Shown: positions 38,111 to 50,612 of the stretch, one piece after another
Layout: every line of letters starts with the position of its first letter
Numbering within the stretch: the stretch's first letter is position 1
Assembly: GCA_016184225.1 (NCBI GenBank)
Contig: JACPDA010000004.1
Coordinates: 208,372 to 272,371, forward strand
Length of the DNA: 64,000 bases
From: Candidatus Daviesbacteria bacterium
GTDB taxonomy: Bacteria > Patescibacteriota > Microgenomatia > Daviesbacterales > UBA10151
Direction of reading: 5' to 3'
Made by a program: the position numbers and the translations under genes
The notes under the pieces: generated by a model
The model's input: only the letters and a program-made list of their open reading frames with translations
Told to the model about the DNA's origin: nothing
The model's database searches: none

Positions 38111-38908
38111 ATGATCAATACTTTATTAGGTATTAAGAAAACTATGACAAGCACATATGACTCTCGAGGCAGAAGAGTAGGTGCTACTGTGGTGCAAATT
38201 TCCCCTAATTTTGTCACCCAAGTAAAAACAGCTGATGGAAAAGATGGATATAACGGCGTCCAATTAGGTTATGGGACAAAAAAATCAGTTAAGAAGCCCC
38301 AGATTGGACATGCCAAAAAAGCTGGACTGGAAGCCCAAATCCGCTGGTTTAGAGAAGTCAGGCAACAGGCAACAGGCAACAGTGGACAGTCAGAAGATCT
38401 AAAGCCTGGAACAGAAATTAAACTGGACCAGGTTTTTTCTATAGGGGATGCAATAAAGGTATCGGCAGATTCTAAAGGAAAAGGTTTTCAGGGTGGAGTC
38501 AGGAGACATGGGTTTCACGGTGGTCCAAAGACTCACGGTCAATCAGATAGACTTCGGGCTCCGGGTGCCATTGGTTCCGGGACTACTCCGGGTCGGGTTT
38601 ACAAAGGTAAAAAAATGGCCGGTCATATGGGGACGACTCAAGTCAGTGTTAAAAACCTGGAAGTGGTTGGCTTAAATAAGGAGAATGATTTATTAGTGGT
38701 TAAAGGCGCTGTTCCGGGTCCGGTTGGCAGTTTAGTTCTAATAACAAAATTAGGCAGGATTAAAGGTTATACCCCTCCACCGGAAGAAAAACCATCAGAA
38801 GAAGAGGAACAAGAAACAAAGACTGAAGGCGCACTGGAAGCAAAAGAAGAAGCACCAGCAGAACAGAAAGAAGAAGTTAAGGAGGAACCAAAGAATGCCG
38901 AGAATTAA
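38111..38908 (+). CDS. rplC: 50S ribosomal protein L3 with E/K-rich C-terminal tail and in-frame (CAGGCAA)x3 insertion
   Basis: MINTLLGIKKTMTSTYD.. aligns with the L3 N-terminus (start taken at 38111 rather than track 38099); heptamer array 38359-38393. Confidence 0.9.
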   Translation: MINTLLGIKKTMTSTYDSRGRRVGATVVQISPNFVTQVKTADGKDGYNGVQLGYGTKKSVKKPQIGHAKKAGLEAQIRWFREVRQQATGNSGQSEDLKPGTEIKLDQVFSIGDAIKVSADSKGKGFQGGVRRHGFHGGPKTHGQSDRLRAPGAIGSGTTPGRVYKGKKMAGHMGTTQVSVKNLEVVGLNKENDLLVVKGAVPGPVGSLVLITKLGRIKGYTPPPEEKPSEEEEQETKTEGALEAKEEAPAEQKEEVKEEPKNAEN

Positions 38909-39620
38909 GAAAAAAACATCAATTAAAAAGACTACTCGGGGTCCTGCCAAACGTTCATCTCTTTCTGTTCCTGTCTATTCCTTAGCAGGTAGAGCAAGCG
39001 GAACTTTAACTTTGCCAAAGGAAATTTTTGGGCAAAAGGTAAATAAAAAATTATTATCGCAAGCGCTGAGAGTTTATATTACTAACCAAAAGAGTCTGAA
39101 TGCTTCTACCAAAACCCGGGGTGAGGTAGAAGGCTCAACTGCCAAAATTTACAGACAAAAAGGGACCGGTAGGGCCAGACACGGAGCGATTAGGGCACCG
39201 ATTTTTGTGGGCGGAGGAATAGTTTTTGGCCCTAAGCCCCGAAAAGTAAGATTGGAGTTGCCACAAAGGATGAAAAAAGCCGCCCTTGTCTCGGCTTTTT
39301 CTGCCAAAATGAGTGACAAACAAGTAATAGGTTTATCGGGATTGGAAAAAGCTTCCGGCAAGACTAAGGAGATGAGTGGGTTAATGTCGTCAGTCGTCAG
39401 TCGTCAGTCGTCAGACAAGAAACAAAAACAGACAAGTGCCTTAATCATTACAGGAGAAAAACAAGACAATGTAGTTAGGGCTGTGAGAAATATCCCCGGA
39501 GTTGATATTTCGCCGGTTAATCTTATTAATGCTTATGAGGTAGTGAAGCACAGTTTGTTGCTTGTCACTAAAGAAGCGGTGGAAAAATTAAGCAAGCCAG
39601 CGATAAAGGAGCAAAAGTGA
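38895..39620 (+). CDS. rplD: 50S ribosomal protein L4; contains in-frame (GTCGTCA)x4 array at 39386-39413
   Basis: L4 conserved blocks (..[23 protein letters not shown]..). Confidence 0.9.
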
Positions 39621-40048
39621 TAGTCCTGAAAAGGCCAATTATAACTGAGAAGTCTATGAAACTGGCCCAAGGCGGCTTGTATGCTTTTGAGGTAGACAAA
39701 AACGCGACTAAACCTTTGATTGCGAGAGCAGTTGCTGAAAAGTTTAGTGTTAAGGTTTTGGAAGTGAAAGTGGTCAATGTTAAAGGGAAGATTAAACAGC
39801 AAAAAAGGGCGAGAAAAACTTATCAAACAGCAGGGTTTAAAAAAGCTTTAGTGCAGGTTAAAAAGGGCGAGAAAATTGCCATTTTTGAGACTCCGAAGGA
39901 AGAAGAGGTGACAGTGACAACTGCAGAAGGTGAGCCAATGAAGTTGAAGGAGAAGAAAGATCTTTTGGGCCGAACTAAAGTTAAAGTGGAAAGAAGTGCA
40001 GTAGGAGCAGCTCCGACAACTCAGCGAAAGGTAATAACAGGGAAATGA
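39617..40048 (+). CDS. rplW: 50S ribosomal protein L23 with C-terminal extension
   Basis: L23 N-terminal region; order L4-L23-L2. Confidence 0.85.
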   Translation: MIVLKRPIITEKSMKLAQGGLYAFEVDKNATKPLIARAVAEKFSVKVLEVKVVNVKGKIKQQKRARKTYQTAGFKKALVQVKKGEKIAIFETPKEEEVTVTTAEGEPMKLKEKKDLLGRTKVKVERSAVGAAPTTQRKVITGK

Positions 40049-40785
40049 GTAATTTAAAGACTTTGCTTAAAAAACATTCCGGAAGGTCCTCTGGCGGAAT
40101 GGTGACTGTCAGAAGCCAGGGCGGCAGGCATAAAAGATATTATAGGGAGATTGATTTTAAGAGGGATAAATTTGGGGTTTCCGGTGAGGTAGTAGCTTTA
40201 GAATATGATCCAAATAGGAACGTGCAGATTGCCTTGGTTAAATATACAGACGGGGAGTATAGGTATATTTTAGCCCCAAAAGGGTTAGGGGTAAAAGATA
40301 AAGTGGTATCAGGAGAAAAGATTGAATCTAAGATAGGTAATGCCATGAGGCTTAAAAATATTACAGTCGGGACACTAGTGCATAACGTAGAACTCTCGCC
40401 TGGTAAGGGCGGACAGATCGGTCGGAGTGCCGGAGTGGCTTTGCAGCTTTTGGCTAAAGAAGGCAGTTTTGCCCAGTTGAAAATGCCCTCAGGTGAGATT
40501 AGAATGGTGCCTCTTCAGTCTTTGGCGACAATCGGCAGTTTAGGGAATGAAGAAATAAGGCAACGGGTTATAGGAAAGGCCGGTAGGTCCCGCCATATGG
40601 GTATTAAGCCAAATGTTAGGGGTGTAGCCCAAGATCCTGATTCACATCCGCACGGCGGAGGAGAAGGCAGGTCTGGGATTGGACGTAAAACACCGATGAC
40701 CAAATACGGTCGGCCGGCTGTTGGTAAAACCAGAAATAGAAAGAAATGGACCAATAGATACATAATGAAAAGGAGAAAACCATAA
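40045..40785 (+). CDS. rplB: 50S ribosomal protein L2
   Basis: Conserved L2 sequence (..GRNN.GRITVRHRGGGHKR-like [18 protein letters not shown]..). Confidence 0.95.
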
Positions 40786-41066
40786 TGGGCAGGTCAACTA
40801 AAAAAGGTCCGTATATTGATGAAAAATTAATGAAAAAAGTGATGGCTCAAAAGACCGGTGCTAAAAACCCAATCAAAACTTGGGCCAGAAGGTCACAGAT
40901 CCCACCGGAATTTGTAGGACACACTTTTTTAGTCCACCAGGGCAAGAATTTTGTAACAGTGTTTGTGAGTGAGTCAATGGTTGGACATCGACTCGGGGAA
41001 TTTGCCCCAACAAGACTTTTTAGGAGCCATGGAAAGGTGACTGAGAAGAGTGTGGCCAAGACATAG
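40785..41066 (+). CDS. rpsS: 30S ribosomal protein S19
   Basis: [19 protein letters not shown].. Confidence 0.9.
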
Positions 41067-41168
41067 TTATTCGTCATTCCGAGGTCCGCCAAAGGCGGAC
41101 CGTGGGAATCTTGATTACAAGAAAGATTGCCACGTCGTTTCACTCCTCGCAATGACAGGAAGAAAATT

Positions 41169-49308: not shown

Positions 49309-49317
49309 TGATATAAT
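49309..49317 (+). promoter_or_regulatory. Extended -10 TGATATAAT, 6 nt before the adk ATG (leaderless)
   Basis: TATAAT 49312-49317, ATG 49324. Confidence 0.5.
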
Positions 49318-49323
49318 GGCAGA

Positions 49324-49848
49324 ATGAAAATACTCTTGATTGGGCCGCAAGGATCGGGTAAATCAACGCAAGCTACTCTTTTGGCAGAGCATTTAGGTCT
49401 GCCAAAAATTACGATAGGAGATCTCTTTCGTCAAATAGCAGATTCGGATTCTGAAGAGGGGAAAAGGATCAAACAGATTTTGGACTGCGGTCAATTAGTG
49501 GATGATCAAACTACAGCTGAACTAGTTAAAAAAAGAGTTAGCGAAGAAGATGTTAAGAATGGTTTTATTTTGGATGGTTATCCCAGGACTATAGAACAAG
49601 TAAATATCTTTGAACCGGATTTAGATAAGGTGATTTATCTAAATGTTCCCCGGGAGGAAGTGGTTCAAAGGCTTCTGCAAAGAGGCAGAGCGGATGATAC
49701 TGCTTTACTTATTAATAAACGTCTGGATTTGTATTATCAGCAAACACAGCCTTTACTAGATCATTATAAGCAGCAAGGTACTTTGGTTGAGGTTGATGGG
49801 GTAGGAGATATACAAAGGATTCAGGATGAGATCAGAAAGCAAGTTTAA
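49324..49848 (+). CDS. adk: Adenylate kinase (short LID form)
   Basis: MKILLIGPQGSGKSTQA P-loop. Confidence 0.85.
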   Translation: MKILLIGPQGSGKSTQATLLAEHLGLPKITIGDLFRQIADSDSEEGKRIKQILDCGQLVDDQTTAELVKKRVSEEDVKNGFILDGYPRTIEQVNIFEPDLDKVIYLNVPREEVVQRLLQRGRADDTALLINKRLDLYYQQTQPLLDHYKQQGTLVEVDGVGDIQRIQDEIRKQV

Positions 49849-49850
49849 GG

Positions 49851-50612
49851 ATGAAAGTAAGAAACGTTTGCGAGCAAGACTTGATGAGAAAATCAGGTGT
49901 GATTGCTGCGAAAGCTTTAAAGCGGGCGACAGAAGCAATTAAAGTTGGTGTAACAGAGCTTGAGGTTGATAAAATTGTAACGCAGGAGATTTATAAGCAG
50001 GGTGGGGATTTATCTTATAAAAGCGTACCGGGTTATAAATATGCCACTTGCATTACGGTAAATGAGCAGGTGGTACATGGAATACCTACAGATAGAAAAT
50101 TTGAAAGCGGTGATGTAGTAAGTGTGGATCTGGCGGTTGTGTATAAAGGTTGGCATACAGATTGTGCTTGGAGTGTATTAGTAAGTGGACAGGGTACAGG
50201 CGACAGTGGACAGTTGGAAAAGACAAAATTCTTAAAAGCTGGAGAGGAGGCTTTATGGGATGGGGTAGCGCAGGCAATAGACGGGAATAGGGTGGGGGAT
50301 ATTTCATCAGCTATTCAAGAGAGAATTGAGAAAAATGGATATAGTGTGGTAAGAAGTTTAGTTGGACACGGGGTCGGCAGGAGCTTGCATGAGGATCCGG
50401 AAATACCGGGATTTGGAGAAGCAGGAAAGGGGCCAGTATTAAAAAGCGGGATGAGCTTGGCTATTGAAGTGATCTACACATCAGGATTGCCGGATGTGGT
50501 ATTAGAAAAAGATGGGTGGACTTTCTCGTCTGCTGATAAGTCGCTCGGGGGATTATTTGAGATGACAGTAATTGTCGGGAAAAAGGAGCCTAAAGTATTA
50601 ACCCATTGGTAA
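49851..50612 (+). CDS. map: Methionine aminopeptidase type I; contains in-frame CAGGCGACAGTGGACAGT mini-repeat (50196-50214)
   Basis: Pita-bread fold metal ligands in conserved blocks (..DLAVVYKGWHTDCA.., ..HGVGRSLHEDP..). Confidence 0.9.
   Translation: MKVRNVCEQDLMRKSGVIAAKALKRATEAIKVGVTELEVDKIVTQEIYKQGGDLSYKSVPGYKYATCITVNEQVVHGIPTDRKFESGDVVSVDLAVVYKGWHTDCAWSVLVSGQGTGDSGQLEKTKFLKAGEEALWDGVAQAIDGNRVGDISSAIQERIEKNGYSVVRSLVGHGVGRSLHEDPEIPGFGEAGKGPVLKSGMSLAIEVIYTSGLPDVVLEKDGWTFSSADKSLGGLFEMTVIVGKKEPKVLTHW

Follow-up and report, generated by a model that had tools for sequence, protein, structure and literature searches.

A heptamer mini-repeat shared by the L3 and methionine aminopeptidase genes of a Candidatus Daviesbacteria genome, and its relation to heptamer-built hairpins

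Heptanucleotide repeats have been known for more than 30 years without a mechanism or a function and are usually described as intergenic. The arrays described here lie in a stretch of 64 000 nucleotides from a Candidatus Daviesbacteria genome (GenBank assembly GCA_016184225.1, contig JACPDA010000004.1, positions 208 372–272 371 of the forward strand; the whole stretch is referred to as the window), in which tandem 7-nt units stand in frame in rplC (ribosomal protein L3), map (methionine aminopeptidase, MetAP) and other genes and also form the arms of intergenic hairpins. Among the short tandemly repeated repetitive (STRR) sequences, the units CAACAGT (STRR3) and CCCCAGT (STRR1) have cores that resemble the ACAGTCA and CAGTNNN units found here. 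The STRR sequences of Calothrix and Nostoc (Mazel, 1990) and a general excess of heptamers (Mrazek, 2007) are both cited in PMC4692102 and PMC4679880; as far as those papers relate them, STRR and heptanucleotide long simple sequence repeats (LSSR) share with the present arrays the tandem 7-nt units, the few families spread over many loci, the length of about four units and the lack of a known function or generating enzyme. They differ from the present arrays in that the host here belongs to the candidate phyla radiation (CPR), that the arrays are not depleted from coding DNA and lie in frame in ribosomal proteins, initiation factor IF2 and MetAP, that arrays are joined to inverted arrays in hairpins and that no strain-level length variation was seen.

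Direct repeats of TAACTGA occur in marine Beggiatoaceae, cyanobacteria and Bacteroidetes (MacGregor, 2015; PMC4679880). Like the heptamers of the window, they lie a few nucleotides from start codons without a Shine–Dalgarno (SD) sequence, ribosomal-protein operons included, contain stops in all three frames in one orientation, occur occasionally within open reading frames (ORFs) at protein termini and have a patchy distribution that suggests mobility by no known mechanism; their reverse complement, TCAGTTA, fits the CAGTNNN pattern. TAACTGA is, however, one unit, arranged in direct repeats with a single inverted case and found within ORFs mostly of hypothetical proteins, whereas the window contains several families, regular hairpins and copies also at internal sites of L3, L4, IF2 and MetAP. 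In Xanthomonas and Nostoc, the GGGAATC and GGGGAYT repeats (Rehm, 2015; PMC4692102) are likewise heptamers with a preference for about four units and some inverted pairs, placed between co-oriented genes near stop and start codons and differing in length and sequence between related species; they form G-quadruplexes and within coding regions they are under-represented, whereas the present arrays are not of the G-quadruplex type and are common in ORFs.

[quoted passage not shown] That source gives RPE a length of about 100–150 bp and a conserved peptide; the elements of the window measure 21–90 nt and encode a frame-dependent peptide, their arms consist of heptamers and lengthen by 21 nt at a time, many of the copies in ORFs are single arms and no target-site duplication can be defined. 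Compared with the known repeats, the differences are the CPR host, the arrays in coding DNA, the three-unit rule, the reuse of hot spots by different families and the bulges in a 7-nt register. The small dispersed repeats (SDR) of Nostocaceae, reportedly described by Elhai in 2008 as dispersed 21–27-nt sequences with tandem heptamers and hairpins inserted in otherwise conserved sequences, are similar in these respects but belong to a different phylum and have different sequences. Borg elements are a further parallel: their tandem nucleotide repeats reportedly arise fast and extend proteins by segments that are probably disordered. Their units within ORFs are reportedly multiples of 3, whereas the 7-nt unit of the window stays in frame through the addition of three units. 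A search of an incomplete literature collection found no paper describing heptamer elements for CPR bacteria.

The window had been interpreted beforehand from its letters and ORFs alone. This sequence-only reading had claimed a near-identical mini-repeat in frame in two unrelated essential genes, an observation that was confirmed. In map (49851–50612), ACAGGCGACAGTGGACAGT occupies positions 50196–50214 within a looser period-7 array, and its counterpart in rplC (38099–38908) lies at 38372–38390. The two sites are identical at 18 of 19 positions, and the pattern ACAGGCRACAGTGRACAGT matches without mismatch at these two places only, against 0.03 matches expected from shuffles. Both copies are in frame and encode ..RQQATGNSGQS.. 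in L3 and ..SGQGTGDSGQL.. in MetAP. A likeness to the arms of the hairpin upstream of nusA had also been noted and was found again, with AGGCAAC-type units at 189–218 and an inverted arm at 242–257.

The loci of the window were compared with 7.5–20-kb pieces of 14 relatives. Judged by the L5 protein, the closest relatives (86–59% identity) are metagenome-assembled genomes (MAGs) of Candidatus Daviesbacteria (Microgenomates, CPR/Patescibacteria); loci of Daviesbacteria relatives are labelled L001–L011 and L219–L221, L219 being from the same genome as L001. The L3 segment from RWFRE to PG measured 48 nt in L003, L006, L007, L009 and L011, 60 nt in L008, 69 nt in the window and L010, 75 nt in L001 and L002 and 93 nt in L005. 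The net rplC insert relative to the 48-nt baseline is +21 nt (+7 aa), and uL3 proteins in the PDB show a 7-residue gap there. Among 115 Daviesbacteria proteins the segment has 9 aa in 39, 16 aa (+7) in 16 and 10–25 aa in the others, with at least three unrelated insert types (Q[AG]TG[DN]SGQ, IKGEGESVKGEVE and NPSTSLGTIQ), and the hot spot has been occupied by different families (ACAG, AAGGGGN and a small palindrome). The MetAP segment from AWS to KFL measured 48 nt in L001, L005, L006 and L009, 63 nt in L010, 69 nt in the window and likewise in L003, whose decayed ACAG array at this site is orthologous, and 75 nt in L004, with AAGGGGN-type units; MetAP from T. maritima aligns with gaps at the window insert, and the net map insert is also +21 nt. 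An AlphaFold2 model of L3 computed on a 43-sequence alignment was unusable [mean predicted local distance difference test (pLDDT) 42.6, predicted template-modelling score (pTM) 0.17], and the surface placement of the L3 insert therefore rests on the gaps relative to PDB homologues. Alignment with orthologues bore out the view that these segments are lineage-specific insertions: outgroups, PDB homologues and many Daviesbacteria are without them. The palindrome at the L3 hot spot, of the form ATCCCTCGA..TCGGGAT, stands in frame in one Daviesbacteria clade and encodes the peptide NPSTSLGTIQ; it is related to a small-palindrome family CCCGAT-loop-ATCGGG, which was also seen in the window (5518–5545, 56596–56614, 56626–56648 and about 61830) and in L010 (4228–4296).

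Tandem Repeats Finder (TRF) returned 21 arrays of period 7 in the window, against a mean of 1.2 and a maximum of 3 in 30 dinucleotide shuffles, and all other periods were at chance level relative to the same shuffles. A strict autocorrelation scan gave 11 segments of period 7 and 0–3 for periods 5, 6 and 8–11. The coding fraction of the window is 0.90, and 8 of the 10 strict arrays and about 13 of the 21 TRF arrays lie in ORFs; heptamer arrays are thus not depleted from its coding DNA. Gene names were assigned by NCBIfam (L3, L4, MetAP I, MltG, RecX, L22, S17, S5, L17 and IF2), and the reading frame is kept at every array within an ORF. The further arrays that had been pointed out in rplD, mltG and recX were recovered by TRF and by an exact-run scan, with the correction that the mltG array has 4.9 units and not four. 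The same phenomenon was found in independent MAGs of other species. Dense arrays were seen in L002 (9 in 15 kb), L011 (14 in 20 kb) and, similarly, L007 and L009; they were scarce in L003, L005, L006 and L010. Most non-CPR outgroup loci had 0–1 period-7 arrays each, with 4–6 in L034 and in the cyanobacterial L048 and L079.

The arrays belong to few unit families (ACAGNNN, AGAGTCN, AAGTGCA and AGTCNTC), which recur at non-orthologous loci and in other species. In the window the AGAGTCN pattern was found at eight loci against 0.08 expected, three units of ACAGNNN at three loci, AAGTGCA at two or three (infB, the rpsC/rplP spacer and, as a 3'-arm type, before rpsJ) and AGTCNTC in rplD and the pnp leader. 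Other species carry the families at other sites, for example as a perfect (AGTCGTC)×4.3 at the N-terminus of rplD in L011, as ACAG units in the S17 tail of L007 and as AGAGTCA ×4.3 in the L17 tail of L001, and identical blocks of 15–35 nt stand at non-orthologous loci and in different species. The contention that the near-identity of the L3 and MetAP repeats is not ancestral was upheld, the same ACAG-type block having been found in the IF2 of a relative, before nusA, in DnaK, in S16, in GuaA and in an RseP-like protein. Two propositions about the units were rejected. A universal N-A-G-K core (in 34 of 74 units, against 26% expected; p = 2e-4, the arrays not being independent) is a tendency and no rule, and the strongest enrichment behind it is that of GTC/AGT/TCA. 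The families are not specific to one genome, as ACAG in both L3 and MetAP of the window had seemed to indicate: the genome of L001 has AAGGGGN in L3 and ACAG in IF2.

When metagenomes were scanned for the 18-mer ACAGGCRACAGTGRACAG, at least 120 loci matched. About two thirds of 120 matches were isolated and without array context, as chance would give in a collection of this size, and only those in array context were used (about 40, inside period-7 arrays in the ACAG register, GC content 0.32–0.69). In metagenome contigs TG[DN]SGQ was found in frame in a DnaK tail (on a 1.02-Mb Daviesbacteria contig), in an S16 tail, inside GuaA and in an RseP-like protease. The ACAG block is read in these contigs in all three frames (TGDSGQ, QATVN and RQQWT), which argues for an origin at the DNA level and not at the protein level. 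Long arrays in the ACAG register with changing 3-nt variable parts, such as (AGGCAAC)×5-ACAGTGA-(ACAGGGA)×5, were observed in the metagenome loci L176/L217, L134, L136/L149, L159 and L141, on contigs with a GC content of 0.44–0.65; the unit core is widespread well outside the CPR.

Beyond the sequence-only reading, it was found that the arrays are arms of hairpin elements and that 3' arms lie directly before start codons. The intergenic copies consist of an array and an inverted array that fold into hairpins, and seven hairpins, that of infB included, gave z scores of −2.4 to −6.9; the folds outside infB span 188–258, 5480–5585, 5598–5672, 42250–42315, 46605–46695 and 50915–50970. Their stems of 4–6 bp are split by internal loops of 1–2 nt, so that the 7-nt register is visible in the fold, with about five paired and two unpaired bases per unit and the variable unit positions unpaired. 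The nusA hairpin (ΔG −34.7 kcal/mol, z −6.9) is composed of 4–6-bp stems with 2-nt internal loops. The pnp-leader hairpin (ΔG −47, z −6.8) has a window-specific apex on an outer stem, TTTGGGGATTG ... CAGTTTCCAAAT, common to L220 and L221. This stem lies in the rpsO–pnp spacer of three species (window 5480–5585, L220 6512–6697, L221 7006–7125) and has no match in Rfam. It is probably a pnp leader hairpin of the kind that RNase III processes in E. coli.

Complete hairpins have clean boundaries and vary by presence or absence; at the IF2 hot spot, upstream of nusA and at the rpsE/rplO junction such differences were found within conserved flanks. The flanks of the nusA site are near-identical in L219 and L220, where the distance from the terminator (..GTCCCACCTTTTT) to the ATG is 8–17 nt; the window is longer by about 72 nucleotides, and this surplus is exactly the hairpin. 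In five relatives the rpsE/rplO junction shows an overlapping stop and start (ATGA) directly after ..AAGAAGATAG, and the window has an insertion of about 85–88 nt, the 5' arm of which extends the S5 ORF and the 3' arm of which supplies the TAG (this boundary was read from the raw sequences, MAFFT having misplaced the gap).

In infB a 5' array (1834–1866) pairs with a complementary array (about 1873–1900), both inside the ORF (z −3.2). Relative to IF2 from T. thermophilus, the insert adds 14 aa between β-strands of the G domain, directly before the DTPGH motif. Among 118 Daviesbacteria IF2 proteins, 83 have a 10-aa baseline at this site and 35 carry an insert (+7 to +27 aa), at least four types being represented. 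The segment measures 66 nt in L220 (baseline), 87 nt in L221 and 108 nt in the window, and the surplus of the window over L221 is exactly AGCGAAA AGGGCAA AGTGCAA in the 5' arm (+21 nt; +42 nt relative to L220). The IF2 gene of L219 contains instead an ACAG-type hairpin, GTACAGGTTACAGGTGACAGTGGACAG ... CTGAAACCTGTAACCTCTAACCTG, whose arms match the nusA hairpin of the window (CAGGTTACAGG and CCTGTAACCT). In other Daviesbacteria (P0124, P0207 and further ones) the IF2 hot spot holds IPRQARDDFAENRK-type inserts that resemble translated palindromic elements of yet another family.

The net length change was 21 or 42 nt in all resolvable ORF cases (rplC, map, rplD, mltG and two infB steps). Selection on frame had been proposed on the ground that array lengths stay near multiples of 3; the effect of frame holds for the net insertion but not for the arrays themselves, whose lengths (24–35 nt) do not fall on multiples of 3. 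Perfect arrays within ORFs consist of a resident unit and three added units, about 4.1–4.9 copies. The rplD sequence of the window is an L010-like one with exactly three additional GTCGTCA units (96 versus 75 nt; resident seed ATGTCGTCAG), and the mltG array encodes NSKFQIP/NSKF, a 7-aa duplication in a variable inter-domain linker, and has no RNA structure (z +2.3). The first recX array lies in a loop that exceeds its PDB RecX counterpart in length; the second brings no net change in length relative to 3d5l. The C-terminal tails of L22, S17, S5 and L17 are built of arrays, are missing from outgroups and are different in every Daviesbacteria species. In-ORF arrays were found only in lineage-variable loops and C-terminal tails; the sites in L3, MetAP, L4 and IF2 are indel hot spots within Daviesbacteria, where later codon indels blur the 21-nt pattern.

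The mini-repeats of L3 and MetAP are best read as two copies of a genome-wide heptamer-array family in Candidatus Daviesbacteria, STRR-like in its units and MITE/RPE-like in its behaviour. The complete account, to which we incline with moderate confidence, is that of a dispersed family of heptamer-array hairpins with arms in a 7-nt register, spread by homology-seeded copying of DNA, of which ORFs keep the stop-free three-unit events and in which AGAGTC 3' arms end ORFs. The basic element would be a hairpin with a 5' arm of about 3–5 units of one family, a loop and a 3' arm of complementary units. It would be copied to new sites at the DNA level, most likely by template switching or ectopic gene conversion, with priming on short seeds already resident there (GGACAG or GTCGTCA, for example); alternatively, a dedicated transposase might do the copying. 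The arms may grow or shrink in the 7-nt register by slippage, and selection in ORFs would retain only events that add three units (21 nt, or 7 codons), are free of stops and fall in surface loops or tails. AGAGTC-family 3' arms have TAG in all frames and would thereby terminate the ORF and give rise to the S5, S17 and L22 tails. Slippage and templated insertion had both been offered as the source of the repeats and both were seen, the former as local triplication (rplD, mltG and the infB 5' arm) and the latter as import of hairpins (nusA, rpsE/rplO and IF2). The earlier interpretation is supported and extended. The mechanism of copying and the function of the hairpins are what we infer.

Several observations weigh against this account. 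The internal arrays of rplC, map, rplD, mltG and recX lack both a partner arm and significant RNA structure and are therefore not complete elements, and the events in rplD, mltG and the infB 5' arm are pure local triplications that need no import. Inserts of +27, +15, +12 and +45 nt also occur at the hot spots, which makes the 21-nt rule a mode and no law. No transposase or other candidate enzyme was found among the ORFs of the window, and no terminal inverted repeats or target-site duplication could be clearly defined, the junctions showing ambiguous TA/TAA. The host genome is represented by one 64-kb stretch and the relatives by short pieces. Length variation within the population was not seen, and any slippage must therefore be slow.

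Population variation was followed in Logan contigs found by exact L14, S10 and IF1 proteins (10 samples for the rpsC–rplP and rpsQ arrays, one each for rplC and map/infA). The copy-number variation between strains that the sequence-only reading had proposed as a check was not observed: the contigs were 100% identical across 38359–38393, 42251–42326, 43310–43426, 50184–50214 and 50907–50975 (1–10 samples per locus), which means that on that time scale the arrays are no hypervariable contingency loci. A role as phase-variable contingency loci was rejected on this ground and because the hosts are essential housekeeping genes and the copies are all in frame. Between species the array lengths differ at the same sites. 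Contig L091 (Logan SRR12113425), equivalent to window positions 35394–38794, is identical to it as far as 38439, some 45 nt beyond the rplC array; it is clearly diverged thereafter and encodes a 262-aa L3, and it arose either as a chimera in assembly or by recombination between co-occurring Daviesbacteria.

The strongest competitor, still unlikely, is local microsatellite dynamics, in which slippage with a preference for 7-nt units amplifies resident heptamers and nothing moves between loci; the likeness of loci would come from similar seeds (GGACAG from Gly-Gln codons) and a filter for harmless, stop-free peptides. The exact triplications of resident units fit this view, as do the ACAG-like seeds in baseline L3, MetAP and IF2 (GACGGACAA, GACAGGG and CACAGTGG), and a polymerase-footprint explanation is attached to the excess of heptamer simple sequence repeats in the part of the argument of Mrazek (2007) that PMC4679880 and PMC4692102 convey. 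Slippage does not, however, account for the three perfect CAGGCAA units of rplC, which differ at 3 of 7 positions from the adjoining resident CAGTGGA, or for the nusA and rpsE/rplO hairpins, which occupy sites whose empty state has no seed. Against it also stand the blocks shared between non-orthologous loci of different species, the absence of any observed copy-number variation in the population and the fact that stepwise +7 events would be frameshifts in essential genes.

The positions of the 3' arms speak for a role in mRNA. The arm GACTCTAGCGACTAG(N)CACTA ends 3–10 nt before the ATG of pnp, rplN, rplO and rpmJ; GACTCTAGCGACTAG recurs without change in L001 and at three window loci and in closely similar form in L009 and L011, and always lies just before a start codon (of the gene after rplQ in L001 and L009, and of rpsC, rplE and rpmJ in L011). 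In the window, heptamers of the 3'-arm type directly precede the ATG of eight genes (nusA, pnp, rpsJ, rpsC, rplP, rplN, rplO and rpmJ). An SD motif (GGAG, GAGG or AGGA at −4 to −20) was found at 0 of these 8 starts and at 22 of 60 others (p = 0.047), a contrast that is marginal, and in several tails the spacer that precedes a 3' arm capable of self-folding contains AAGGAG. The combination of 3' arms before SD-less starts with 5' arms often located in the upstream ORF suggests translational coupling or processing, since ribosomes translating the upstream ORF would open the hairpin. From the arrangement of the sequence, the intergenic copies probably have a role at the mRNA level, such as translational coupling.

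It is rather more doubtful than local slippage that this function came first, the hairpins being cis-regulatory mRNA structures for coupling, processing or stability in ribosomal-protein operons, kept alike by selection towards a shared trans-acting partner, and the in-ORF arrays being functional 5' arms or decayed remnants. Such a view draws on the significant hairpins at seven loci, the conserved 3' arm directly before starts of different genes in four species, the absence of SD motifs there, the AAGGAG spacers followed by self-pairing 3' arms and the parallel of the TAACTGA repeats before SD-less starts, ribosomal-protein operons included (PMC4679880). It leaves unexplained how the hairpins arrive at new loci and why structureless solo arrays occur in L3, MetAP, L4, MltG and RecX, and the SD contrast on which it leans is marginal. 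It also finds neither an Rfam match (a search of the window with Rfam 15 at the gathering score gave tRNA-Pro as the sole match and no family for the heptamer hairpins) nor a terminator signal: Rho-independent terminators were rejected as an identity for the hairpins, no T run following any of them on the + strand and a terminator scan giving 14 against 12.5 expected.

Adaptation at the protein level, in which the inserted peptides (TGNSGQ, ESRVESQ and others) were selected and the nucleotide repeats are a by-product of peptide duplication, is very improbable. Ribosomal proteins of CPR bacteria do carry lineage-specific extensions, the inserts are kept in frame in essential proteins and Q[AG]TG[DN]SGQ persists in a clade of L3 sequences. 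The 7-nt unit is, however, no codon multiple, the same units form non-coding hairpins, close relatives are without inserts at every site, unrelated peptides occupy the same site in different species, and the reuse of one block in all three frames in different proteins largely refutes the idea. An assembly artefact or chance resemblance can be practically dismissed: Logan contigs do tend to end near arrays (L081 at 46635) and L091 turns chimeric at 38439, but independent assemblies are identical across the arrays, all reading frames are intact, independent MAGs of other species are alike and the shuffle statistics oppose chance.

A bolder reading is offered only tentatively and seems unlikely as a whole: the hairpins may be mobile cis-regulatory cassettes of CPR bacteria, built and copied by a sequence-specific machinery working in the 7-nt register, with the 3' arm replacing the SD sequence and coupling ribosomal-protein genes. 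If so, arms that arrive or lengthen in ORFs three units at a time would regularly supply L3, L4, L22, S5, S17, L17, IF2 and MetAP with new loops and tails, and the same process would lie behind the cyanobacterial STRR and Beggiatoaceae TAACTGA heptamers. Irrespective of that reading, the arrays are evidence that small repeat DNA gives new loops and tails even to proteins that are among the most conserved in bacteria, with the IF2 G domain, uL3, uL4 and MetAP as examples. The ribosomal-protein operons in hundreds of Daviesbacteria MAGs form a compact comparable system; filled and empty sites, three-unit steps, hot-spot reuse and the link to start codons can be read from alignments, and origin and function are therefore testable by comparative genomics and reporters. 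In practice, the arrays break short-read contigs within ribosomal-protein operons and add lineage-specific indels to the marker proteins of CPR phylogeny. The features of the window are listed in Table 1.

Table 1. Heptamer arrays and heptamer-built hairpins of the window (positions counted from its first nucleotide)
Feature	Position	Strand	Family or units	Remarks
nusA hairpin	188–258	+	ACAG	From upstream terminator to nusA start; 5' arm 189–218, 3' arm 236–258
infB (IF2) hairpin	1834–1900	+	AAGTGCA	Complete element, in frame in G domain; encodes ..VQSEKGKVQSGLNTQHSSL..
pnp-leader apex	5494–5570	+	AGTCNTC (arms)	CCCGAT palindrome at tip; apex of hairpin 5480–5585
pnp upstream hairpin	5598–5672	+	AGAGTC	3' arm GACTCTAGCGACTAGTCACTA ends 4 nt before pnp ATG; z −2.4
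mltG array	20934–20967	+	(AAATTCC)×4.9	Perfect, in frame; TRF and exact-run scan
rpsJ upstream heptamers	37187–37228	+	ACTTAAGC ACTTATC ACTATTC ACTTAGC	3'-arm type, directly before rpsJ ATG
rplC array	38359–38393	+	(CAGGCAA)×3.4	Units at 38359–38382, then CAGTGGACAGT to 38393; in frame, L3 residues 88–98
rplD (L4) array	39386–39414	+	(GTCGTCA)×4.1	Perfect, in frame; TRF and exact-run scan
rplV (L22) tail array	41498–41534	+	AGAGTC	Encodes QESRVKSLESS, C-terminal
rplV/rpsC heptamers	41565–41610	+	GCTGAAA GCTGAAG ACTGATA GCTAATT	3'-arm type; across rplV stop, end just before rpsC ATG
rpsC/rplP hairpin	42251–42326	+	AAGTGCA	3' arm reaches rplP ATG; z −5.0
rpsQ/rplN element	43310–43426	+	AGAGTC	5' arm 43310–43345 encodes ESRVENQESS (S17 tail); K-rich spacer with AAGGAG; 3' arm 43395–43426 gives stop codon, ends 4 nt before rplN ATG
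rpsE/rplO hairpin	46601–46695	+	AGAGTC	5' arm encodes 11-residue S5 tail; ΔG −31.7, z −3.6
map array	50184–50214	+	ACAG: AGTGGAC AGGGTAC AGGCGAC AGTGGAC AGT	In frame, MetAP residues 112–122
infA/rpmJ hairpin	50907–50975	+	AGAGTC	3' arm GACTCTAGCGACTGGTCACTA ends before rpmJ ATG (50977); z −2.6
rpsM upstream array	51099–51130	+	(AATTTAA)×4.6	Unstructured
rplQ (L17) tail array	53814–53843	+	AGGGTNT	Encodes KGSRVQGLGV
recX first array	61268–61302	+	AGAGTC	In frame, ..LESRVKGK..; TRF and exact-run scan, 61268–61295
recX second array	61488–61520	+	AGAGTC	In frame, ..RVESQESS..; TRF and exact-run scan, 61494–61513

All but two or three genes of the window lie on the + strand, and its GC skew is positive throughout. 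The tetranucleotide CTAG is under-represented outside the arrays (82 observed versus 133 expected), and the arrays hold 24 of the 106 CTAG sites. A connection of GAGTC with restriction or modification was considered and rejected, GAGTC and GACTC outside the arrays being near Markov expectation. A promoter scan of the window stayed at background level. A TATAAT-like box, often TGGTATAAT, was observed 6–8 nt before the ATG of many first-in-operon genes without an SD motif (starts at 10963, 14292, 30157, 35612, 48453 and 49324); such boxes close to SD-less starts suggest that leaderless mRNAs are frequent in this organism.

A hairpin GTCATTCCGAGGTCCGCC-AAA-GGCGGACCGTGGGAAT was noted upstream of rplV (41067–41126). 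The normally tight junction of the S10 and L3 genes is interrupted in the window by a 93-aa ORF without a Pfam match between rpsJ and rplC (37552–37833) and by a gap of 265 nt (37834–38098) that has a terminal hairpin, GAGTGAC..GTCACTC, directly before the rplC ATG. Between tuf and rpsJ lies a gene (36807–37187) for a PF05635 '23S rRNA intervening sequence protein', a four-helix bundle, and this tuf–PF05635–rpsJ arrangement was the same in all same-population contigs.

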